The position numbers were made by a program, and so were the translations under genes. Positions 49,235 to 60,342 of a stretch of 64,000 nucleotides of DNA are shown here, in pieces. The DNA is from Nitrosomonadales bacterium (GTDB lineage: Bacteria; Pseudomonadota; Gammaproteobacteria; Burkholderiales; Gallionellaceae): assembly GCA_016214695.1 (NCBI GenBank), contig JACRNY010000005.1:80372-144371 (forward strand). The letters are read 5' to 3'. Position 1 is the first letter of the stretch. Each line of letters opens with the position of its first letter. The notes beneath the pieces are model-generated. The model worked only from the letters and a program-made list of their open reading frames with translations. It did no database searches and was not told the origin of the DNA.

Positions 49235-49380
49235 GGTCACCTTTAGAAAATCCATTTTTCTGGATGAAACACTAGGAGCCGCGCAGCGAATGACGAGACA
49301 TACCAAATGGGTAGGCGAGGAATGAGCGAGCACGCGACAACGTGGTTCGCCAGAACAATGGATTTAATAAAGGTGTTACC
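49235..49380. mobile_element. ~146-bp MITE-like element between fliQ and fliR
   Basis: Imperfect ~35-bp TIRs: ggtcacctttagaaaatccatttttctgg versus reverse complement ggtaacacctttattaaatccattgttctgg. Confidence 0.7.
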
Positions 49381-50169
49381 GTGATCAGCTTCACCAGCGC
49401 GCAACTTCTAGCCTGGTTCGCCGCCTTCATCTTCCCGCTCGCCCGCATCCTCGCGCTCATCGCCAGCGCCCCGGTACTCGGCAACCGGCAGATCCCCGTC
49501 CGCATCAAGGTCGGACTGGCAGTGGCCATCACCATGATCGTCGCACCCACGCTGGACATCCCCACCGATCTCGACCCCGCATCCGCGCAAGGCGTGCTTG
49601 TCCTGATACAGCAGATCGTCGCCGGGCTGACCATGGGTTTCGCCATGCGTCTCGTCTTCACCGCCGTGGAGATGGCGGGCGACCTCGCCGGCATGCAGAT
49701 GGGCCTGGGTTTCGCCACATTCTACGACCCGCAGAACGCCACCTACCTGCCCGTGATCGCACAGTTCCTCGGCATCATCGCCGCGCTCACCTTCCTCGCC
49801 ATGGATGGTCATCTGTACATGCTGGCGGCGCTGGTGGAAAGCTTCCATTCCTTCCCCATCGCCGTGGGCACGCCCTCTGCCGGAGCATTCCGTACCCTGG
49901 TGGAATGGGGCGGCGCCATGTTCAGCCACGCGCTGCAACTCTCGCTCCCCCTGATCGGCGCGCTGCTCATCACCAATCTGGCGCTCGGCATCCTCACCCG
50001 CAGCGCACCGCAGCTCAACATCTTCGCGGTCGGCTTCCCGGTCACACTGGCGGTCGGCTTCATCGCACTGATGCTGGTGCTGCCTTTCCTCGCACCATTG
50101 CTGGGAACCTTCGTACGTGAAGGCCTGGATGTGATTGCGCGGGTGATGCAGCAGGCGGGGGGGCGTTAA
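49381..50169 (+). CDS. fliR: Export gate FliR
   Basis: GTG start; AGMQMGLGFA, DGHL and RSAPQLNIFAVGFP motifs. Confidence 0.95.
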   Translation: MISFTSAQLLAWFAAFIFPLARILALIASAPVLGNRQIPVRIKVGLAVAITMIVAPTLDIPTDLDPASAQGVLVLIQQIVAGLTMGFAMRLVFTAVEMAGDLAGMQMGLGFATFYDPQNATYLPVIAQFLGIIAALTFLAMDGHLYMLAALVESFHSFPIAVGTPSAGAFRTLVEWGGAMFSHALQLSLPLIGALLITNLALGILTRSAPQLNIFAVGFPVTLAVGFIALMLVLPFLAPLLGTFVREGLDVIARVMQQAGGR

Positions 50170-50228
50170 CGTGCAGCTAAGGGCGTCCCGGCGTCCTAAG
50201 GGAGCGAACTTGAGTGCAAGGATTAGGC
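50164..50228 (-). other. Terminal degenerate attC (65 bp)
   Basis: 78-bp family with an internal ~14-nt deletion and a mutated R'' (GCCTAAT); R' GTTAACG overlaps the fliR stop. Confidence 0.75.
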
Positions 50229-50516
50229 GTATTTGAACTCGATCTTATGGATCTTTTTTAGATCCACAGTCTGCTTGGCTTGCCATAGATCGTAATTGTC
50301 TTGCATCATCAACCAGCTTTCGGGGGTGCGTCCCAATGCCTTGGAAAGACGAAGAGCCATCTCAGGGCTCAAACCACTGGTTTCGTTCAAAACGCGATTA
50401 AGAGTCGAGGCGGCAACGCCCAATTTGAGGGCGAGCTCCCTGCAGCTGATTTCGTTCGGCGCAAGATAAACCTCTTGAATAAATGCGCCGGGGTGTGGCG
50501 GATTGTGCATAGCCAT
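50223..50516 (-). CDS. higA: HigA-family antitoxin (HTH_3)
   Basis: MAMHNPPHPGAFIQE, SPEMALRLSKALG and PESWLMMQDNYDL motifs. Confidence 0.92.
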   Translation of the reverse strand: MAMHNPPHPGAFIQEVYLAPNEISCRELALKLGVAASTLNRVLNETSGLSPEMALRLSKALGRTPESWLMMQDNYDLWQAKQTVDLKKIHKIEFKYA

Positions 50517-50599: not shown

Positions 50600-51409
50600 G
50601 GGGACAGACCACGGTTTCTCTCCTACTCCAAATCCAGTTCCCCCGATTCCGGCATTCCCGATTTTCGCGGACGCCCGGATTGACCCGGTGCAGCGCGCCT
50701 GCCGATCGTTTCGCTCACCGCTGATGCAAAGCGCTCACTCCCCAGCGCAAAGTTGCCATTAGTCGCCCGACGAATCTCATCCACCAGCCCTGGCTCCAAC
50801 TCATAACGAAAGAGATCGCGGTAAGCCGCCTGACGGGACACCGCGTCGCTACCCAGCGAGGTGTATAGCAGATGCGGTTGCACCAAGGCATCCATCTCCC
50901 CCTGCGCATTGGCCCGGTAGCTGGACCAGCGATACTCCGCTGGATGCGTCACCATATTCGCACGCACGGGGTTCAACTCGATGTAACGCTGGCATCCCAA
51001 AAGGTAATCTTCCTCTTGCACCGGGCACGACCGAAAGCGTCCTTCCCACAAAGTGCCGCTGCGCCGATAGACGCGATTCACATACTGCACATAACGCTGC
51101 CCCAGCGACTTCATCAAAGCACCGCCCGCATCAGCGCGCTCTGAAGAAATCAGCAGGTGAACATGATTCGTCATCAGCACATAAGCATGAATCCGGCAAC
51201 TGGACTTGCTGGCGTACTCGGAAAGCCAATCCAGATAGCGGCGATAGTCCTCATCGGCGAAAAAACAGGGCTGGCGATTATTGCCACGCTGGATAAGGTG
51301 GATAGGTACATTCGGCAATGCGATGCGGGCGCGGCGCGGCATGGCGAACTCCGACTGCGGAAGGACGAAGGGCAGTCTATCAAAGATCAGGAAACCGTGG
51401 TCTGTCCCC
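50600..51409. mobile_element. REP-flanked Y1 transposase element (RAYT/REPtron-like)
   Basis: Perfect 19-bp inverted ends ggggacagaccacggtttc (50600-50618) and gaaaccgtggtctgtcccc (51391-51409). Confidence 0.8.
50623..51342 (-). CDS. HUH Y1 transposase (REP-associated tyrosine transposase family)
   Basis: HLIQRGNNRQ, MTNHVHL (HUH), LWEGRF, YIELNPVRA and WSSY motifs. Confidence 0.92.
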   Translation of the reverse strand: MPRRARIALPNVPIHLIQRGNNRQPCFFADEDYRRYLDWLSEYASKSSCRIHAYVLMTNHVHLLISSERADAGGALMKSLGQRYVQYVNRVYRRSGTLWEGRFRSCPVQEEDYLLGCQRYIELNPVRANMVTHPAEYRWSSYRANAQGEMDALVQPHLLYTSLGSDAVSRQAAYRDLFRYELEPGLVDEIRRATNGNFALGSERFASAVSETIGRRAAPGQSGRPRKSGMPESGELDLE

Positions 51410-52570: not shown

Positions 52571-52648
52571 ACCTAACGTGCAGCTAAGGGGCGCGCCGAA
52601 GGCGCGTCCCAGCGACCAAAGGGAGCGAACTTGAGCGTAAGGTTAGGG
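52571..52648 (-). other. attC (78-bp signature family)
   Basis: CCCTAAC-CTTAC-GCTCAAG...CTTAG-CTGCAC-GTTAGGT. Confidence 0.92.
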
Positions 52649-53005
52649 GCCATCTACTGCCCCGACATCCATGCCATCATAGTCAAGAACTCCAAAGTGT
52701 TCGGCTACTTTATAGAGCTCCTGATTTCTCTGATTCAATGAATCAACAGAATGGGTTTCAATGCGATCTGCGCGTAGAAAAATTGTCTCTTGGTCTTCGT
52801 CTTCTGGAGCTGGCTCCAAAAAACCTATTACTTCATACCCGTTGTTTTCAAGATGGTGACCAATCTGAGTTAGTTTTTCTTTGTCACTATCCACAAAGAA
52901 AAATGACCACCTGCACGAATCGTCAATATCAAAGGGAGCTTTCCCCTCCTTATAAAGTTGCCGGGTGTGATCAAAGAACTCTTGTAATGTTTCGACTGTA
53001 ATCAT
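52643..53005 (-). CDS. Cassette gene: acidic RraB-like (DUF695-associated) protein
   Basis: WSFFF..LENNGYEV and terminal LDYDGMDVG pattern resemble RraB-like proteins. Confidence 0.55.
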   Translation of the reverse strand: MITVETLQEFFDHTRQLYKEGKAPFDIDDSCRWSFFFVDSDKEKLTQIGHHLENNGYEVIGFLEPAPEDEDQETIFLRADRIETHSVDSLNQRNQELYKVAEHFGVLDYDGMDVGAVDGP

Positions 53006-53011
53006 TGTGGC

Positions 53012-53070
53012 CTCTAACGTAAAGGTAAGGGGCGCGCGTTAGCGCGTCCCGCTTGACCGACGGGTTAGGC
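53012..53070 (-). other. attC (59 bp)
   Basis: GCCTAAC-CCGTC-GGTCAAG...CTTAC-CTTTAC-GTTAGAG. Confidence 0.9.
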
Positions 53071-53398
53071 TTGGGTCAAAAAGCAGAAACGCACGCCATG
53101 AACCCCAGCCCAGCAACACGGCGAAAATTAGTGAATAAACTTCCTGCCCAGAAACCATGCCGTAATCGAGAGACGCGGCGAGTGCCAAGACGGGAACAGC
53201 CCAACAAAGCAATTTCATTGCAACGTGCCCCCAAGACGGAAGGCGCTTAACTCGCGCTGCAACCAAGAGCACGCCGATTGCGGCAAACAATGCCGACACA
53301 ACAAAACCAACAATATCACCCTCGAACATACTGGGCGCAAACGCAGCGATCACAGCGCAATTAACAAGCAACGCGATAAGCCAGCCGAGTGTGCGCAT
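53039..53398 (-). CDS. Cassette gene: 4-TM membrane protein
   Basis: Four hydrophobic segments; the C-terminus extends into the attC. Confidence 0.75.
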   Translation of the reverse strand: MRTLGWLIALLVNCAVIAAFAPSMFEGDIVGFVVSALFAAIGVLLVAARVKRLPSWGHVAMKLLCWAVPVLALAASLDYGMVSGQEVYSLIFAVLLGWGSWRAFLLFDPSLTRRSSGTR

Positions 53399-53403
53399 AA
53401 GAA

Positions 53404-53485
53404 GCCTAACGTTTCGAGTTAAGCGACATCACGCATGACTGCTCGTTGCGCTCTGCCGCACTGTTTGCGTGATGTCTGCTTGAAC
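53404..53485 (-). other. Truncated attC (lacks R''): 75-bp attC-only unit
   Basis: 53411-53485 is identical to 55280-55354 and 55856-55930; it starts at the L'' box GTTCAAG. Confidence 0.85.
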
Positions 53486-53556
53486 GTGCAGCTAAGGGGC
53501 GCGCCGAAGGCGCGTCCCAGCGACCAAAGGGAGCGAGCTTGAGCGTAGGGTTAGCG
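53479..53556 (-). other. attC (78-bp family)
   Basis: CGCTAAC...GTTCAAG (non-canonical R' contributed by the downstream remnant). Confidence 0.9.
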
Positions 53557-53566
53557 GACATGTGCA

Positions 53567-53866
53567 TCATCGAGAATCAAAGAGGAAGACACCGAGAACA
53601 ATGATGCACAAAATCGCAAGCACGACACCAAGCCCTCGAACAACCCAGCCCGTGATAACCGCATACCTTGGGGTGTTCGTTCCATCGGGGTTGTTGAACC
53701 CCCCAGGCAAATCGTCTTCCAGCGTAGCCACCCAACCATTGATCAAAATTGCCTCCGCAACAATTAAGAATGCCCACCAAAACTTCAAACCTGAGATTGA
53801 AGAGAGGCCTGCTGCAAGCAACGTTATAACCAGCAACCAGATCGATGGCAAGAGCACTCGTTTCAT
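53567..53866 (-). CDS. Cassette gene: small 3-TM membrane protein
   Basis: Hydrophobic 99-aa ORF filling the cassette. Confidence 0.75.
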   Translation of the reverse strand: MKRVLLPSIWLLVITLLAAGLSSISGLKFWWAFLIVAEAILINGWVATLEDDLPGGFNNPDGTNTPRYAVITGWVVRGLGVVLAILCIIVLGVFLFDSR

Positions 53867-53869
53867 GTT

Positions 53870-53947
53870 CGCTAACGTGCAGCTAAGGGGCGCGCCGAAG
53901 GCGCGTCCCAGCGACCAAAGTGAGCGAACTTGAGCGTAGGGTTATGC
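53870..53947 (-). other. attC (78-bp family)
   Basis: GCATAAC...GTTAGCG. Confidence 0.92.
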
Positions 53948-54304
53948 CTAGTGTGAGACATATGCTTCTGTTCTGAGAAACCTGCAAAATTCATCTCGAA
54001 GGTCATCGTCTTCTTTGCCAAATTCCTTTTTGTGCTCCGCTAAATAAGCGAGATAAAGGTGGCCCTTGATTATCTTTAACTCGTTTTCGATGAGGAAGTC
54101 TCTACCTTTCACTCCATTATTAACCTGGTTGCTCAGCTCCTTTAGCGCTTCGTTCGCGGCCTTTTTAGTGAATGCTGATTCTGGAATATACCAAGCATCT
54201 TCTTCTGTTTTTGGTTTAGGCATGGGCTCGCAATAGTTTTTAGCGATTGCGAAATTACTTACAAGGAGCAGCGCAAGCCAACAGCAAATAACTCGTGACC
54301 TCAT
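53948..54304 (-). CDS. Cassette gene: secreted hypothetical protein
   Basis: Signal-peptide-like MRSRVICCWLALLLVSNFAIA; fills the cassette. Confidence 0.78.
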   Translation of the reverse strand: MRSRVICCWLALLLVSNFAIAKNYCEPMPKPKTEEDAWYIPESAFTKKAANEALKELSNQVNNGVKGRDFLIENELKIIKGHLYLAYLAEHKKEFGKEDDDLRDEFCRFLRTEAYVSH

Positions 54305-54835
54305 TTAATTTCTCCAAGAGGCATAACGTGGAGCTAAGGGGCGCGCCGAAGGCGCGTCCCAGCGACCGGAGGGAGCGAACTTGAGCGCAGGGTTAGGTGG
54401 TTCTCCAGCATTGATAGTTCTTTGCACCTCAGCCTCGTCGGATATATAGAAAATGGGTTCCATTTTTTTATGTTCTATTACCTCGGTTGCCCCATTGATA
54501 GTTACATTCACATAGCCGGGATGAGCTCTGGCGGGCCAATCATGTTGTGCCCATTCCCAGTATTGCGGATGATTCGTACTTCTGCCCGTTGCCTCGAATA
54601 GAGTTCTTCCGTGCTTACCTTTAACAATTAGAACCGTATCATCTACATCAAAAAGAGGGCTGTAATATCGTAGTTCAATAGTTACGTCCTCTCTCTGATA
54701 TCCGGTAGGTAGCGTTGGATACCAAACCGGTAATCTTGATGCTGGTGATAGCGTGAAGTCGGACTCCAATAACCCTCGTATCGGAGAACAGGCTGAGAAC
54801 AATACCAAGAATAGAAGGCCGGTGATAATCCTCAT
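54305..54835 (-). CDS. Cassette gene: putative lipoprotein that reads through its attC
   Basis: Lipobox LFSAC; the last ~31 codons come from the attC and the next cassette's leader. Confidence 0.75.
   Translation of the reverse strand: MRIITGLLFLVLFSACSPIRGLLESDFTLSPASRLPVWYPTLPTGYQREDVTIELRYYSPLFDVDDTVLIVKGKHGRTLFEATGRSTNHPQYWEWAQHDWPARAHPGYVNVTINGATEVIEHKKMEPIFYISDEAEVQRTINAGEPPNPALKFAPSGRWDAPSARPLAPRYASWRN
54321..54398 (-). other. attC (78-bp family)
   Basis: ACCTAAC...GTTATGC. Confidence 0.92.
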
Positions 54836-54841
54836 AACTTC

Positions 54842-54901
54842 ACCTAACGTCTGACATGAGGGGCCGCCGATAGGCGGTCCCTCTCGATGGATGGGTTGGG
54901 C
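54842..54901 (-). other. attC (60 bp, distinct type)
   Basis: GCCCAAC-CCATC-CATCGAG-AGGGACCGCC...GGCGGCCCCT-CATGTCAGAC-GTTAGGT. Confidence 0.88.
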
Positions 54902-54904
54902 ATC

Positions 54905-55267
54905 TTAGCCAAGACTGAGGCCCTTTTCTTTGGCTAGGCTGCGTGGGGATTGGCCAAATTCGGACACGATATCGGTTCGTGCCCCGGCCGCCAAAATGGC
55001 TTGTATGGCCTTTATGTTTTCTTGACGAATGGCAACGTGAAGAGGGGTTTCACCCATGTCGCCAACAGCATTGACGTCTGCGCCATGTTGAATAAGCAGA
55101 AGCGCTCCGTCAGTGTCCTTGCGCCAAAGAAGCACATGAAGCGGTGTATCGCCATCAACGTCAGTGCTACCAATATCAACCGCTTGATTCCCCAAATGCT
55201 CAGGAAACAGACAGTCAGAGGTCGATTGCAAAACCTCGTTTAGTGATCGGGCTGGCGTTTTACTCAC
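54905..55267 (-). CDS. Cassette gene: ankyrin-repeat protein
   Basis: GDTPLH, GETPLH and GQSP ankyrin motifs. Confidence 0.88.
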   Translation of the reverse strand: MSKTPARSLNEVLQSTSDCLFPEHLGNQAVDIGSTDVDGDTPLHVLLWRKDTDGALLLIQHGADVNAVGDMGETPLHVAIRQENIKAIQAILAAGARTDIVSEFGQSPRSLAKEKGLSLG

Positions 55268-55272
55268 GAGAT

Positions 55273-55366
55273 GCCCAACGTTTCGAGTTAAGCGACATCA
55301 CGCATGACTGCTCGTTGCGCTCTGCCGCACTGTTTGCGTGATGTCTGCTTGAACGAGGGGTTCGAC
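55273..55366 (-). other. attC (94 bp, aadA-like L boxes GTTCAAGC/GCTTAAC)
   Basis: GTCGAAC-CCCTC-GTTCAAGC..gacatcacgca/tgcgtgatgtc..GCTTAAC-TCGAAAC-GTTGGGC. Confidence 0.9.
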
Positions 55367-55482
55367 GTGAGAGATTGCGGCCTGGCTGTGATAAATGAAG
55401 CAGCGCGTTCATCTCTAAAAGCGCGGACATTTGATGTACCGCTTCTTCTCATTCATCCTTCGCCGCGATCTATCGCGTTGAA
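55279..55482 (-). mobile_element. 204-bp cassette with no conventional gene (only a 54-aa attC-overlapping ORF, 55288-55452)
   Basis: Bounded by crossover points GTTCAAC and GTTGGGC. Confidence 0.8.
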
Positions 55483-55554
55483 CGTGCAGCTAAGGGGCGC
55501 GCCGCAGGCGCGTCCCAGCGACCGCAGGGAGCGAACTTGAGCGTAGGGTTAGAG
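55477..55554 (-). other. attC (78-bp family)
   Basis: CTCTAAC...GTTCAAC. Confidence 0.92.
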
Positions 55555-55845
55555 TACATCAAGCTTTGACAAATGTTCTTTGTACCTAGCGGCATGTTCC
55601 AATAGCTCCATGTTCTCTGCTGCGAATAGAAGTTCTTGCCAAAAAAGATGCTCTTCTGCGTACCCACTATGACTTTCACCAATGCCTTCTAATGAATCTA
55701 AAGCAAGCTCAAATTCGGTATGGTGAAGATACTCGATGTATTGCTCTTCCCACTCCGCAGGTGTGCTGAGCACGACCGGCAGAAAATATCTTGCTGCTGC
55801 AAGATGACGCAACGAAGTTTTGAGTTCATCGGGGTATGGTCTCAT
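55549..55845 (-). CDS. Cassette gene: small acidic helical hypothetical protein (immunity-protein-like)
   Basis: 98 aa, Glu-rich (EYLHHTEFELALDSLEGIG); stop lies in R''. Confidence 0.7.
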   Translation of the reverse strand: MRPYPDELKTSLRHLAAARYFLPVVLSTPAEWEEQYIEYLHHTEFELALDSLEGIGESHSGYAEEHLFWQELLFAAENMELLEHAARYKEHLSKLDVL

Positions 55846-55848
55846 AAA

Positions 55849-55942
55849 CTCTAACGTTTCGAGTTAAGCGACATCACGCATGACTGCTCGTTGCGCTCTG
55901 CCGCACTGTTTGCGTGATGTCTGCTTGAACGAGGGGTTCGAC
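55849..55942 (-). other. attC (94 bp) of the first cassette
   Basis: Same sequence as 55273-55366 apart from the cassette-dependent R' (GTTAGAG). Confidence 0.9.
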
Positions 55943-56017
55943 GTGAGAGATTGCGGCCTGGCTGTGATAAATGAAGCAGCGCGTTCATCTCTATTCGCCG
56001 CGATCTATCGCGTTGAA
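55855..56017 (-). mobile_element. First cassette (163 bp): copy of 55279-55482 with a 41-nt deletion
   Basis: Identical except for loss of the segment at 55418-55458. Confidence 0.85.
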
Positions 56018-56040
56018 CGTAAAGTAGACACCCTAAAAAA
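56012..56040 (-). other. Putative attI site
   Basis: Last GTT crossover (G/TTCAAC) before intI, preceded by a 5-nt spacer and degenerate L box TGTCTAC; no attC palindrome upstream. Confidence 0.55.
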
Positions 56041-56116
56041 TGCCGAGAAAGGCACCTTCGAGACGTACAATCTGGCATCAACTCTGCAATGCCTTGTTTT
56101 TGTTGAAGGAGAAATT

Positions 56117-57112
56117 ATGGTAACCCCTAAAATTTCCGATAAAAGCACCACGGCGCAACCTCCCAAATTATTGGATCAAGTCCGCGATAAGTTGCGGGTG
56201 AAGCACTACAGCATTCGCACCGAACAAGCCTATACGGGCTGGATTAAACGCTATATCTATTTTCACGGCAAGCGCCACCCCAAAGACATGGGCGCGGCAG
56301 AGATAGAGGCTTTTCTGACAAATCTGGCTGTCGAGGGCAATGTTTCCGCGTCCACACAAAACCTGGCCAAGAGTTCATTGTTATTCCTCTATCGCGAGGT
56401 TCTTGAAATTGAATTGCCCTGGCTGGATAACGTGACACAGGCCAAAGTACCAAAGCGCTTGCCGGTTGTCCTGACGGTATCGGAAGTTCAGAGCGTGTTG
56501 TCGCAATTGAATGGCACGCATTTGTTGATCGCATCGTTACTGTACGGCGGCGGGATGCGTTTGATGGAGGCGGTGCGCTTGCGCGTCAAGGATGTGGATT
56601 TCGAGCGGCGCGAGATTCTGGTACGCGAGGGCAAGGGGTTCAAGGACAGGGTGACGATGTTGCCGGAAACGATCATCGATTCGCTCAAGGCGCACATGGC
56701 AAGGGTCAAAGCATTGCATGCGGAAGATCTGGCGCAGGGCTATGGTGAGGTGTACATGCCATTCGCGCTGGACAAGAAATATCCAACAGCCGGAAGAGAC
56801 TGGAGCTGGCAGTATGTTTTCCCGTCAAAGAATCTGTCGGTCGATCCGCGTTCGGGCAAAACGCGCCGCCATCATGTGGATGAAAAAGGTGTACAGCGTG
56901 CGGTGAAGCAGGCCGTGCGCGATGCAGAGCTCACCAAACCCGCCACGCCGCACACGCTGCGCCATTCCTTTGCCACGCATCTGTTGCAATCGGGCTACGA
57001 CATCCGCACCGTGCAGGAGCTGCTCGGCCATTCCGATGTTTCCACCACCATGATCTACACGCATGTGCTGAACAAGGGCGGCAGAGGTGTGGTGAGTCCG
57101 CTGGACAGGTGA
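56117..57112 (+). CDS. intI: Integron integrase (331 aa)
   Basis: RBS GAAGGAGA; [32 protein letters not shown] and TTMIYTH motifs; integron-specific insert [29 protein letters not shown]. Confidence 0.97.
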
Positions 57113-57140
57113 AGCGGAGAGTTCGCTCAAAGATTCTCCA

Positions 57141-57180
57141 AAAAAAACGGCGCGCAATCCCTTGCGCGCCGTTTTTGTTT
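57141..57180. terminator. Bidirectional intrinsic terminator between intI and flgL
   Basis: aaaaa-cggcgcgcaa-tccc-ttgcgcgccg-ttttt. Confidence 0.88.
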
Positions 57181-57194
57181 GTTGATGAATCTTG

Positions 57195-58403
57195 TTACAG
57201 GTAGTCGAACAGCGACATCTGTGACACTTTCGCGAACGACTGCTGTGCTGCCTGCAGCGTCATCTGCTCCACGGCGAGTTCGCTGATGGCTTTGTTGTAG
57301 TCGGTGTCCTGGACCTTGGACAGGGTCTGCTTGAGTTGCAGCCCGACTTCTTCGCCGGTGGCCTGCAGGGCATCCAGTTCGCGCAGTCGCGCTCCCATGG
57401 TGGCGCGGACGTTCAGGACATTGCCGAGCCCCTGATCGATCGCGCCGAAGGCGTCGTTCAGTCCCTGACGGTAGGCTGCCGAGTTCATGGCGTTGGTCGA
57501 GGGGATGGAGGCATTCAGCGTCGCGATGAGGTCGCTGAGGGTGGTGAACAGGCTCTGGTTGGTGCTGGGGGTGATATCGAAGGTGTCGCCGGCGACGGGG
57601 GCGCCCCTGATCTCGACCTGCACGCCGTTGAAGCCGATCGTCTGTCCGCTCACGTAGGTGCCGGAGCTTACCGGCACGGGCGGCCCGGCGGTCACATCGT
57701 TGATGTCGTAGGTGGTGGCACTGGTGAAGACGATCTGGTAGCTGTTGTTGTTGTACAGCGCCGGATCGATCACCGCGCCCTGGGTGATGGATCCGGTGCC
57801 GGTGTTGCCTGCGCCGGGTGCGGCCTGGAACAGGCCATTGCCGTTGCGGATGCGCATGAAGATGTCGGCACCGGAGTCGGTGGTGGTGATCTGGCGCGAT
57901 GCGGCAGCCTGTACTTTGCGCTGCACGTCGTCGCCCTGGTAGGCGACGCCGCCGGCGGTATCCACGAACGGTTGCACAGTGCCCTGCGACCCGGAGAACA
58001 GGAAGTTACCTGCACCGTCGCTGCTGTTGGCCAACCCCAGCAATTCCTGCAGGCGGCCCTGCAGTTCGGTCGCCAGTGATTTGCGGCTGGTGTCGTTGAG
58101 GATGCCATTGCCGGCATCCACCGCGATGACGCGCACATCCTGCAGCAGTGACGTCACGCTTTGCATGACACCTTCCGCCAGGCCCAGCGTGTTCATCGCC
58201 GCTGTGCGATTGACGCCGTATTGGGTGTTCGCCGAATCCGACTGGGTGAGTTCCACCGCGCGTGCCGCGCCGGCAGGATCATCGGCGGGATTGAGGATGC
58301 GGCGCCCGGTCGCGATCTGCTGCTGCGTCTTGGCAACCTGCGACTGCAGGTTGTTCATGGTGGTGATGTTCTCGTTATAGAGTGTGCTGGTACTGATGCG
58401 CAT
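57195..58403 (-). CDS. flgL: Hook-filament junction protein FlgL
   Basis: MRISTSTLY..QIATGRRILNPADDPAGA, FLFSGSQ and DTDYNKAISEL motifs. Confidence 0.93.
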   Translation of the reverse strand: MRISTSTLYNENITTMNNLQSQVAKTQQQIATGRRILNPADDPAGAARAVELTQSDSANTQYGVNRTAAMNTLGLAEGVMQSVTSLLQDVRVIAVDAGNGILNDTSRKSLATELQGRLQELLGLANSSDGAGNFLFSGSQGTVQPFVDTAGGVAYQGDDVQRKVQAAASRQITTTDSGADIFMRIRNGNGLFQAAPGAGNTGTGSITQGAVIDPALYNNNSYQIVFTSATTYDINDVTAGPPVPVSSGTYVSGQTIGFNGVQVEIRGAPVAGDTFDITPSTNQSLFTTLSDLIATLNASIPSTNAMNSAAYRQGLNDAFGAIDQGLGNVLNVRATMGARLRELDALQATGEEVGLQLKQTLSKVQDTDYNKAISELAVEQMTLQAAQQSFAKVSQMSLFDYL

Positions 58404-58410
58404 GATAGTC

Positions 58411-60342
58411 CTAGCCTCCCAGTTGCAATAAGGTGTCGAACATGTTGTTGGCGATCGACATCGCCTTTGCCGCCGCCTGATAGGCCTGCTGGTAGCGCAG
58501 CAGGTTCGCCGCTTCCTCGTCCAGGTTGACACCGGATACCGCCTGCTGCGACTTGGTCACCTGGTCGAGCATGCTGGTCTGCGCCCGGCTGGTGACTTCG
58601 AGTTCGCGCGTCTGGGTGCCGACCTGGCTGATCAGTTGCCCATAGGCGCCCTGATAGCTGGTGGTGCCGTTCGCCATGGTATTGGCGGTCTGCAGCAGCG
58701 CCAGTTTGAGCACGTTGCTGCCGTCGGTGGTGGCATTGGTGTTGGCGGTGACGGTGAACACGTCGCCGGCAGCCGGCGTCCCGCTGATCTGCGTGGTCCA
58801 GCCGTTGATGGTGATCGCGCTGCCCGAGGTATATGCCTGCGGCCCCGCCGGTGCACCGGTGCCGGTGGCGGTGTAGGTGGTGGGCGGATTGTTGAAAGTG
58901 ATGGTGATCGGCTGCTGCAGGTTGGCATCCAGCGGCAGACCGGGCACCACCGTCGCTGCCGCGATGAGGCCTGTGCCCAAATTGCTTATCTGTGCATTGG
59001 AACGCACGGGCGAAGCGGCCGCGATCCTGGCGGGGTCGGTGATGCCGAGCGCGATGGCGCTGGCGCCGCTCACCGTGGGGCGAACCAGGAAGGAGTCGCC
59101 CGCCGCATTCGCCACCATTCCCGGCGTCAGTTGCAGGGTGATGCCGGTGCCAGTGAGCGTCTGTCCGGCAGTAAGCTGCGCCGTGGTGAATGTCTGCAGC
59201 AGCGTGTTGTCGGAGGTGTCGTAGACGTTGTAGTTGGTGCCGTCGAACTGCACGTTGTAATCCTTGCCGGTCAGCGCCGCTGTGCTGCTGATGCTGGCCG
59301 CCAGCGAGCTGTCGCCGACGTTGCTGGTGGAGGCCGTCACGCGCGGGGTCGCGGAAGAGAAGAACGTCCCGCCCAAGGCCCCCTTGAGATCCATGCCCTG
59401 CTGGTGTTGCTGGTTGAAGGTGTCGGCCAGGCCGAGCGCGATGCGGCCCAGCGCATTGACGGCGGGGTCGAGTTCGTTCTGGCGGAAGTCGAGATAGCCG
59501 CCGAGATTACCGCCCTGCAAAGCGTCCTGGCGGATGCGGCTGACATTGCCATTGTTCAGGTAGGCGACCTCCAGCGAGGTCGGATCGGTGGTGGAAGCGA
59601 CCGCCTGCAGGGTGGAGACACGGTTGCCGACCACCAGCGACTGGCCGCTGCCGATGAACACGTCCACCGAGCCGTCCGACTGCTTCACTGTGGAAACGCG
59701 GATCTCCTGGCTCAACTGGTTGATCAGCTGGTCGCGCTGGTCGAGCAGGTCGTTGGGCGGTTGTCCCGGCGTCTTGGACTGGAGCAGCACGATGTTATCG
59801 TTCAGCGCGGCGATCTGTTTCGCGTAGCTGTTGACCGAGGTCACGCTGTTCTGGATCTGGCCGTTGAGTCCGTCGCGGATCTGGTTCATGCGCAGGTCCA
59901 GCGCCTGCAGGCGGTTCACCAGCGTCTGGGCGCTGCCGATCATGCCTTGTCGCGCGGAAACGGATTCGGGCGCGTTGGCCACGCCGTTCACTGCGTTGAA
60001 GAAGTCCTGCAGGGTCGGGGTGAGGCCGCCGCTGGAATCGCCGAACAGGTTGCTCAGCTGCTGCGACAGTTCGTAGCGGGCGTTCAGGTTGGATGACTGG
60101 GTCTGCGCTTCCAGCACCTGCGCGCCAAGGAACTGGTCGTAGCGGCGCAACACGGTGGTGACATCGGCCCCCTGCCCCAGATAGCCGGCGCCGGTATTCT
60201 GCGGCTGCTCGGCGGTCTGGATGATCTCCTGGCGCGAATAGCCGGGGGTGTTCACGTTGGCGATGTTGTGCGAGGTCGCGGCGATGCCCGCCTGAGCCGC
60301 CCGCAATGCACTTACCCCGATACCGTATATTCCTGTGCCCAT
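58411..60342 (-). CDS. flgK: Hook-associated protein FlgK
   Basis: SHNIANVNTPGYSRQ, PNDLLDQRDQL and SGVNLDEEAANLLRYQQAYQA motifs. Confidence 0.95.
   Translation of the reverse strand: MGTGIYGIGVSALRAAQAGIAATSHNIANVNTPGYSRQEIIQTAEQPQNTGAGYLGQGADVTTVLRRYDQFLGAQVLEAQTQSSNLNARYELSQQLSNLFGDSSGGLTPTLQDFFNAVNGVANAPESVSARQGMIGSAQTLVNRLQALDLRMNQIRDGLNGQIQNSVTSVNSYAKQIAALNDNIVLLQSKTPGQPPNDLLDQRDQLINQLSQEIRVSTVKQSDGSVDVFIGSGQSLVVGNRVSTLQAVASTTDPTSLEVAYLNNGNVSRIRQDALQGGNLGGYLDFRQNELDPAVNALGRIALGLADTFNQQHQQGMDLKGALGGTFFSSATPRVTASTSNVGDSSLAASISSTAALTGKDYNVQFDGTNYNVYDTSDNTLLQTFTTAQLTAGQTLTGTGITLQLTPGMVANAAGDSFLVRPTVSGASAIALGITDPARIAAASPVRSNAQISNLGTGLIAAATVVPGLPLDANLQQPITITFNNPPTTYTATGTGAPAGPQAYTSGSAITINGWTTQISGTPAAGDVFTVTANTNATTDGSNVLKLALLQTANTMANGTTSYQGAYGQLISQVGTQTRELEVTSRAQTSMLDQVTKSQQAVSGVNLDEEAANLLRYQQAYQAAAKAMSIANNMFDTLLQLGG

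Follow-up and report, generated by a model that had tools for sequence, protein, structure and literature searches.

A duplicated 339-bp integron cassette as a candidate portable leader for translational coupling

A small cassette without an ordinary gene was found to be repeated in a chromosomal integron within the 64,000-nucleotide stretch of Nitrosomonadales DNA analysed here, which is referred to as the window (GenBank assembly GCA_016214695.1, contig JACRNY010000005.1). Sequence comparison places it in a conserved family of 339-344 bp that has not been named. Considering its layout and its analogy with a known leader of class 1 integrons, the chances appear to be about even that this 339-bp cassette, duplicated by copy and paste, is a portable translational-coupling leader of the ORF-11 type. 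A broader reading by analogy is considerably more tentative. According to it, there may be widely shared mobile "leader cassettes" that combine a hairpin, perhaps a circularly permuted attC, with a mini-ORF that initiates on its own and runs through the attC of its cassette, and that would be moved by IntI to the head of the array or between cassettes and would switch on translation of the next gene. Taken jointly with this reading, and held just as tentatively, they would be a position-independent counterpart of ORF-11 in Gallionellaceae-like betaproteobacteria, and related hairpins would occur in the arrays of gammaproteobacteria. The repeat had been noticed in a sequence-only reading as a gene-less cassette present in three states. 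That original finding is half artefact, since two of the three states were absent from reads; the underlying family is mobile, gene-poor and conserved.

The cassette array lies on the minus strand and extends to approximately position 50183. Cassette limits were set by the G/TT boundaries (the slash marks the crossover or a junction throughout), and the following features were used in the analysis.

56117-57112, plus strand: intI, integron integrase of 331 aa, an ORF with GAAGGAG 7 nt upstream
56018-56075, minus strand: attI, a block GTAAAGTAGACACCCTAAAAAATGCC...GGCACCTTCGAG kept beside intI in L001, L003, L006, L086, L087 and L089
55855-56017, minus strand: cassette 1, a copy of the family cassette, 163 nt in the record and 339 nt in reads, with 176 nt absent at 55993/55994
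55483-55854, minus strand: cassette 2, with a 98-aa ORF at 55549-55845 that matched no Pfam family
55279-55482, minus strand: cassette 3, the second copy, 204 nt in the record and 339 nt in reads, with 135 nt absent at 55417/55418
54848-55278, minus strand: cassette 4, with an ankyrin-repeat ORF (Pfam) at 54905-55267
53410-53484, minus strand: cassette 8, a 75-nt stump from L'' to the G of R', without R'' and body
53018-53409, minus strand: cassette 9, delimited by G/TT boundaries

Cassettes 5-7 lie between cassettes 4 and 8. The attI crossover was placed at 56017/56018, which reads G (56018)/TT (56017-56016) on the cassette strand. The IntI of the window was 92.7% identical to that of the related contig L087, whose product matched PF13495 and PF00589, and 588 intI relatives were found in genome contigs. 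Most attCs of the array belong to one family of approximately 76 nt, from which the attC of the repeated cassette differs. In this main family (five attCs, 52572-55559), one frame is open (..NPTLKFAPxGRWDAPSARPLAAR) and also ends with CGT TAG at the junction; examples of its ORFs are 53872-54021 and 53406-53570, both on the minus strand. Several cassette ORFs of the array continue through their own attC, e.g., 54305-54835.

Cassettes 1, 3 and 8 are the repeat copies. Alignment within the window recovered all three copies where they had been reported, with lengths of 204 nt, 163 nt (lacking 41 nt) and 75 nt and zero substitutions in the common sequence; such exact sharing of 141 and 75 nt is far beyond chance. 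The record was then compared with Logan contigs from four runs of a single groundwater study (metagenomes). These contigs were identical to the window over 20 kb, and the sole exception was the repeated cassette. Here, a 344-nt contig (294 nt in run X4) contained 55277-55417, then 135 extra letters and then 55418-55485, and the depth of this long-form contig was 2.1-2.2x the single-copy depth in all four runs. The depth across 55417->55418 as in the record was zero in each of the four runs, including X4 at ~1200x, as was the depth at 55418-55426 in all runs (the stretch being cut just past the junction). Sampled 31-mers over 55417/55418 were absent from every indexed run. Likewise, no Logan contig of the four runs crossed 55993/55994, and the contig on the attI/intI side began with 30 nt of the long context (55456-55485 type) and not with the "tcta/ttcgcc" of the short copy. 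Because the long form was present at 2x depth and the junctions of the record had no read support, it may be concluded that the two copies with a body are the same 339-bp cassette. Most likely, the 204- and 163-nt forms of the record reflect gaps left by consensus/gap-closing or assembly defects. On the plus strand, the ends of the missing piece are GTCCCCTCGGAGTTTAGGCACAGCACCGTT ... CGCACGCTATCACATCCCAGCCTGGTTCAT; 30 + 30 letters of it were read, and the 75 nt at its centre were filled in from L087 and not from reads.

The stump was borne out by the depth in X4. The attC part was covered ~3700 times (~3x) versus a single-copy depth of 1285, and this coverage was divided between the stump junction contig (55 nt, over 53484/53485) at 1026 (1x) and the long form at 2417 (2x). 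Thus, the 75-bp stump is real. Of the three states described earlier, therefore, the stump stood, with its 1x junction in X4, while the 204- and 163-nt forms did not. The caveat that the copies could be an assembly artefact was half justified: the record has gaps of 135 and 176 nt, and the two 339-bp copies and the stump are real. Exact look-ups of four window proteins (IntI and the 98-aa, 120-aa and 118-aa ORFs) revealed no second assembly of the organism, and a search for RNA runs came back empty.

Relatives of the cassette were found in at least five other assemblies (339-344 bp; one truncated copy of 167 bp). The modules of the family are a canonical attC, a 5' block facing a block before R'', a central hairpin of ~75 nt and a 45-codon ORF that is preceded by a Shine-Dalgarno site. 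When the body was searched for as an exact pattern, GTDB genomes and JGI metagenomes yielded 0 matches, and blastn of the 204-nt form yielded none against 80 intI-relative loci or against plasmids; these early searches were empty because the truncated form in the window concealed the family. A 21-mer from the attC identified three contigs (L082, L083 and L085) of one JGI metagenome, Ga0224495. Each of them begins ~127 nt into a homologous cassette and enters a different downstream cassette; therefore, the cassette is multi-copy there too. Two further 21-mer matches (L081 and L084) were rejected as chance matches in unrelated DNA. With a degenerate pattern, L086 was found. In this contig, attI is directly followed by a copy of 167 nt that is truncated at its 5' end, and intI has been lost. 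A protein search with the 45-codon frame gave P0001, P0002 and P0004 and then their contigs; P0001 and P0002 are 45 aa long and 80% and 78% identical, respectively, to the leader ORF of the window. L087 is the closest relative, and its integron occupies a different chromosomal site. The cassette of L087 is exactly 339 nt long and is the fourth of its array (by count). It aligned with the window cassette from end to end, including both known ends of the missing piece. In L089, L090 and L091, a 344-nt cassette is the first after attI in a two-cassette integron, and the copy in L088 is cut by the contig end. Hence, the family cassette is the first after attI in two other integrons, in one of them as the 167-bp truncated copy. 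A search for the body in other integrons had been suggested earlier, with lack of conservation among the reasons to abandon the idea of a functional cassette; the family is conserved elsewhere, so this reason does not apply. It was also observed that the assemblies of relatives (L002-L004, L009, L010, L013, L015, L017 and others) often break at attI or the first cassette, as judged by an intI match beginning <400 nt from the contig end. Consequently, the arrays are mostly unseen, and first-position statistics are biased.

The recombination site of the repeated cassette and the block that pairs with it are composed of the following elements.

55279-55366, minus strand: attC of cassette 3, identical in cassette 1 (55855-55942), recognised by its boxes, fold and inverted repeat
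55360-55366, minus strand: R'' box, GTCGAAC
55347-55354, minus strand: L'' box, GTTCAAGC, separated from R'' by a 5-nt spacer
55335-55345 and 55294-55304, minus strand: 11-bp stem, a perfect inverted repeat with a 30-nt loop
55287-55293, minus strand: L' box, GCTTAAC
55279-55286, minus strand: 7-nt spacer and G, the latter opening R' (G/TTCAAC)
55462-55482, minus strand: 5' block, TTCAAC-GCGATAGATCGCGGC, which pairs with 55360-55381 (GCCGCAATCTCTCAC-GTCGAAC)

The copies are bounded by G/TT and lie beside intI and the conserved attI, as integron cassettes do. In each of the three, TTCAAC or TTCAAGC comes directly behind the G of the preceding site, and the last letters ahead of the next TT are ...AAACG. 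In the circle, R'' GTCGAAC and R' GTTCAAC pair at 7/7 positions on the bottom strand, one pair being G-T. The core sites had been called non-canonical; each is indeed off consensus (RYYYAAC / GTTRRRY) at position 4, but AAC and GTT are kept and the pairing is complete. An extrahelical G (GCTT-G-AAC, bottom strand) is present in the L boxes, and the spacers are 5 and 7 nt long. We take these L boxes to be those of the aadA7 attC. The DNA fold of the bottom (plus) strand of the attC had a z of approximately -3, with a slightly different outer register in the minimum-energy fold. From its sequence features, the attC of the repeated cassette is canonical.

In addition, GCCGCAATCTCTCAC, which lies directly before R'', pairs with the 5' block at 14/15 positions on the plus (bottom) strand in a fixed register beside the R box; the chance of this was estimated at ~1e-5. 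This outer pairing adds ~15 bp to the attC stem in the excised circle. The 5' block and its partner are kept in L087 and partly co-changed in L089. The small palindromes noted earlier in the body did not hold up as features, since 5-bp arms occur at the chance level of ~2 per 200 nt.

The presence of an identical copy at attI and of the same family across arrays and positions suggests that the cassette is mobilised by IntI. The integrase would excise the cassette from one sister chromosome and re-insert it at attI ("copy and paste"), and an identical first-position copy is the expected outcome of this process. Duplication of a cassette by "copy and paste" is a known outcome (PMC8024014). As in the described cases of this process at attI (Loot 2012; Escudero 2015; Souque et al. 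2021, aadB), an identical extra copy is found at the first position and the original stays in place. In duplication of the aadB type, however, antibiotic selection acts on the duplicated cassette, whereas the cargo here has no known selectable function. The view of the repeat as a small cassette that carries its own attC and was re-integrated repeatedly, also at the attI-proximal position, was supported. The stump is joined to the preceding attC at G/TTCAAGC. It could have arisen by recombination at the L'' box G/TTCAAGC used as a secondary site, which is near-identical to the cassette's own R' (GTTCAAC). From the stump and L086, we infer that internal GTT sites may serve as secondary sites.

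The only coding content retained in the true sequence is a short frame.

55278-55412, minus strand (copy 3), and 55851-55988 with the stop TAG, minus strand (copy 1): leader ORF of 45 codons, with homologues P0001, P0002 and P0004

This ORF spans the entire attC and the crossover, and the core site of the next cassette supplies its stop TAG (positions 3-5). In the window, its Shine-Dalgarno site, GAGGGG, is located 7 nt upstream of the ATG, within the missing 135 nt; the corresponding sites of the relatives are GGAGAGG (L087), GGGGAG (L088) and AGGGAG (L089 and L086). Despite diverged flanks, GGAG, GGGAG or GAGG was present 6-8 nt before the ATG in all five close members, and all five had exactly 45 codons with zero indels, with the loop sequence diverged. 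The ORF stopped at the junction TAG in 6 of the 7 contexts of the five close members, and the ending CG/T TAG was found in window copy 1, the stump, L086, L087, L088 and L089. In window copy 3, the frame runs to a TAA that overlaps the next start; here, the last letters of the leader ORF and the GTG start of cassette 4 share sequence (GTGAGTAA). The ATG of cassette 2 is located 5 nt past the TAG of the leader ORF of cassette 1. Overall, downstream starts were 5, 7, 8, 10 or 16 nt past the leader stop or overlapped it, and most of them had weak ribosome-binding sites. The pN/pS was 0.63 in the leader frame versus 0.92 and 1.13 in the other two frames. In L012, which has an unrelated attC, the same layout was observed (GAGGAG-N5-GTG ... 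GGT TAG); L041 had no clear start or Shine-Dalgarno site.

The 54-aa ORF proposed earlier for this cassette is not genuine. It was made by the gap, the true sequence closes its frame after 12 codons, and the frame had no homologue among 5.8 billion proteins. The MNEKK frame, too, is shut after 19 codons once the known part of the missing piece is included. An antisense ORF (78 aa in the window and at most 123 aa in the long form) was rejected as a gene since it had no homologue. A gene-less cassette was defined as one with no annotated gene and no ORF >70 aa. The known frames of the window cassette are 45-50 aa, and the frame derived from the hairpin is shut by a TAA before the leader (the central 75 nt being unread). 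The earlier statement that the repeated cassette holds no ordinary gene was supported. In L087 and L089, there are open frames of 83-86 codons from the hairpin into the leader, and these cassettes would therefore fail the 70-aa cut-off.

The layout resembles that of ORF-11 (ORF-17/18) of the class 1 attI1. The logic of ORF-11 comprises a translation initiation region (TIR), an ORF over the crossover and a TAG formed by core positions 3-5, the sequence of the peptide being unimportant (PMC8876359). Each of these four points has a counterpart here. The leader has a Shine-Dalgarno site 6-9 nt before its ATG and an ORF over the crossover, and its stop, usually TAG, comes from positions 3-5 of the next GTTRRRY core, which would place terminating ribosomes beside the downstream start. 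Unlike ORF-11, which lies in attI and has 11 codons, the leader is borne on a mobile cassette, spans an attC and has 45 codons. It is not encoded in the class 1 attI1 and is therefore an analogue of ORF-11 and not a member; being cassette-borne, it would be able to act at any array position. There would also be a likeness to the short ORFs internal to attCs, which overcome the obstacle that the stem-loop poses to translation (Jacquier et al. 2009, reviewed in PMC8876359), in that translation through the attC hairpin permits re-initiation at the following cassette. Those ORFs depend on the ribosomes of the upstream gene, whereas the leader has its own initiation region and is the sole coding content of its cassette.

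In the proposed mechanism, ribosomes would load at the strong initiation region of the leader, melt the attC hairpin while translating and terminate within 0-10 nt of the next cassette's start codon. Downstream genes with weak ribosome-binding sites would then be translated by coupling, and the polycistronic mRNA would be protected. It was shown that translation of the upstream cassette governs downstream expression (PMC11511950), and the coupling model fits this finding. A role as a translation enhancer, one of several suggested in the sequence-only reading, is consistent with the conserved Shine-Dalgarno site of the relatives and the short ORF through the attC. Thus, from these sequence features, a translational role of the cassette family is plausible. 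Gene-less cassettes have so far been known as promoters. If the reading is true, a Shine-Dalgarno-led ORF over its own attC is a mobile translational device, which would suit the recent view that expression of an array depends on translation of upstream cassettes.

Several findings speak against coupling. The overlapping attC forces much of the conservation of the leader ORF, and the ordinary attCs of the array are equally open in the CGT TAG frame, so the property is not unique to the repeated cassette. In one member, represented by the three contigs of Ga0224495, the ORF carries a frameshift, and a TAA within L' ends it. Moreover, the most conserved part of the cassette is the hairpin, which is superfluous to the model.

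The central hairpin has a length of ~75 nt and ~30 bp. Across L087, L088 and L089, its stem shows 2 compensatory and 3 wobble changes, and its z reached -4.1. It is the best-conserved module, with ~95% identity between L087 and L088 amid diverged flanks. On the sense strand, its z was -3.7 to -6.8 in 4 of the 5 hairpins tested, and that of L087 was -1.8. A covariance model of the hairpin found sense-oriented relatives in arrays of a Methylobacter MAG (L041), a Contendobacter MAG (L012) and a Gallionella MAG (L003, first cassette). These distant hairpins lie in small cassettes and have z values of -5.4 to -6.8.

2949-3039 of L041, minus strand: distant hairpin
6039-6134 of L012, minus strand: distant hairpin
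96-188 of L003, minus strand: distant hairpin

Their stems differ yet stay complementary under a kept apex, CGCATAAC-NN-GTTNATGCGATCA (in L003, GCTTAAC..GTTGAAGC). As an idea only, the apex could be read as L'-spacer-L'' turned inside out, that is, as a circularly permuted attC. The central hairpin was rejected as a second attC since its base is without AAC/GTT boxes. The hairpin may serve to stabilise the 5' end, to provide a processing site or, as folded DNA, to aid mobility.

The main rival of the leader model, with which it is compatible, is that the cassette is selfish and hyper-mobile: its nested hairpins, namely the attC with its 15-bp outer stem and the central hairpin, would make the folded bottom strand an unusually good substrate of IntI, the cassette would spread and keep landing at attI regardless of cargo, and the ORF would be incidental. 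This is a serious possibility, although a minority one. It is favoured by the multiple copies in the window (2 copies and the stump), by the three contexts in Ga0224495 and by the first position after attI in the window, L086 and L089-91, to which the related hairpin cassette at the first position in L003 may be added. Owing to G-T pairs, the outer stem is more complete on the bottom strand, which is the one that recombines, the truncated derivatives end at internal GTT sites, and the apex of the distant hairpins resembles L'-spacer-L'', as in a circularly permuted attC. Selfish mobility leaves unexplained the conservation of the Shine-Dalgarno site and ATG and the strict 45-codon length; in addition, L086 retains the leader and has lost the 5' block and the hairpin.

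Alternatively, the cassette could encode a structured RNA, with the hairpin as the functional product (an sRNA or a processing or protein-binding site) that acts in cis or in trans on array expression. The compensatory pairs in the conserved hairpin, the co-variation of the stems of L041 and L012 beneath the conserved apex and the A-U to G-U changes that retain pairing on the sense strand are all in line with an RNA function; L041 and L012 were left out of the formal pair count because their MAFFT alignment was inconsistent with the structure. Nevertheless, this alternative is unlikely. Rfam scans of the window region, L086, L087 and L088 gave no match to the cassette, with E up to 1-10, and no promoter or terminator was found around the hairpin. 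The sense and antisense strands fold almost equally well, and L086 persists without the hairpin.

The gaps of the record delete the central hairpin and the Shine-Dalgarno site of the leader. They have a common left breakpoint, and neither has microhomology. Microhomology-mediated deletion, replication slippage and a k-mer/de Bruijn-graph join were rejected as the origin of the gaps because the junctions are without shared bases, which both microhomology-mediated deletion and a de Bruijn-graph join need. That the 204- and 163-nt forms are true deletion variants of the sequenced clone, for example, provoked by the hairpin, was judged quite unlikely. All absent bases lie inside the loop of the outer stem and include a long hairpin, a classic deletion substrate, and natural truncated derivatives are known (L086 and the stump). 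Still, such variants had zero support in four runs of the same population, one of them at ~1200x, and the sampled words over 55417/55418 were in no indexed run; the single shared breakpoint without microhomology also argues against them, and the full 2x depth is explained by the long form. A further consequence of the gaps is a 410-aa ORF (55880-57112, plus strand), which owes its existence to the 176-nt gap alone and connects the inside of cassette 1, via attI, in frame with intI. In the long form, its frame meets a TAG in attI. Thus, in the public assembly, a hairpin-rich repeat was shortened in two ways, which gave rise to an ORF, a "deletion series" and an in-frame intI fusion that are all false. 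Repeats in arrays need read checks before interpretation.

Finally, it is highly doubtful that the family is a promoter cassette, like the gene-less ones of the Vibrio superintegron or the ORF-less ones of Treponema, that drives downstream cassettes (or intI, if antisense). Sense promoters are present in most of the Vibrio gene-less cassettes that were tested, and promoters are not predicted reliably in silico (PMC11014356). In our reading of the alignment, the hairpin is directly preceded by a weak conserved GGTACA-N16/17-TATGAA. On the other side, promoter/terminator scans of the window and L087 showed no sigma-70-like site, none was present even at 8/12 matches on both strands of the 264 known bases, and the GC content of the cassette (0.53) is like that of its neighbours and not AT-rich. 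The promoter role considered in the sequence-only reading thus found no support in these scans. The lone predicted "terminator" was the L' region of the stump. Small size, a normal attC and the lack of an ordinary gene are traits that the family shares with the gene-less cassettes described in Vibrionaceae superintegrons (Blanco et al. 2024) and with those lacking ORFs in oral Treponema (Tansirichaiya et al. 2019). Those cassettes were proposed or shown to be regulatory and act as promoters, whereas the family described here has a hairpin and a predicted translated leader and no promoter signal.

Some observations were made on the surroundings of the array. The integron of the window is flanked by fliR (49342-50169) and a flgL-like gene (57195-58532). 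Elsewhere, the neighbours of related integrons were glmU-glmS (L087, 138-4493), gyrB, with intI deleted (L086), and ispG (L089); these varied neighbours indicate that related platforms occupy different chromosomal sites. Other cargo with Pfam matches included an RraB-family regulator of RNase activity (52643-53005, minus strand) and an HTH_3 (HigA-like) protein (50223-50516, minus strand), and the remaining cassette ORFs tested matched no Pfam family. Near the distal end of the array, an ORF for an IS200-like Y1 transposase (PF01797, RAYT-like) was found at 50623-51342 on the minus strand. Contigs of X2 and X4 join 50618->51390 via 14 other letters (AAATACATTGCAGT) at approximately single-copy depth; this joint is probably either another locus with the same flanking repeats or an insert-free form. 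In the gap between intI and the convergent flgL-like gene (57097-57232), there is a GC-rich hairpin between A and T runs (GGCGCGCAATCCCTTGCGCGCC). Only weak matches to sRNA models were obtained at this position, and the hairpin is probably a bidirectional terminator.
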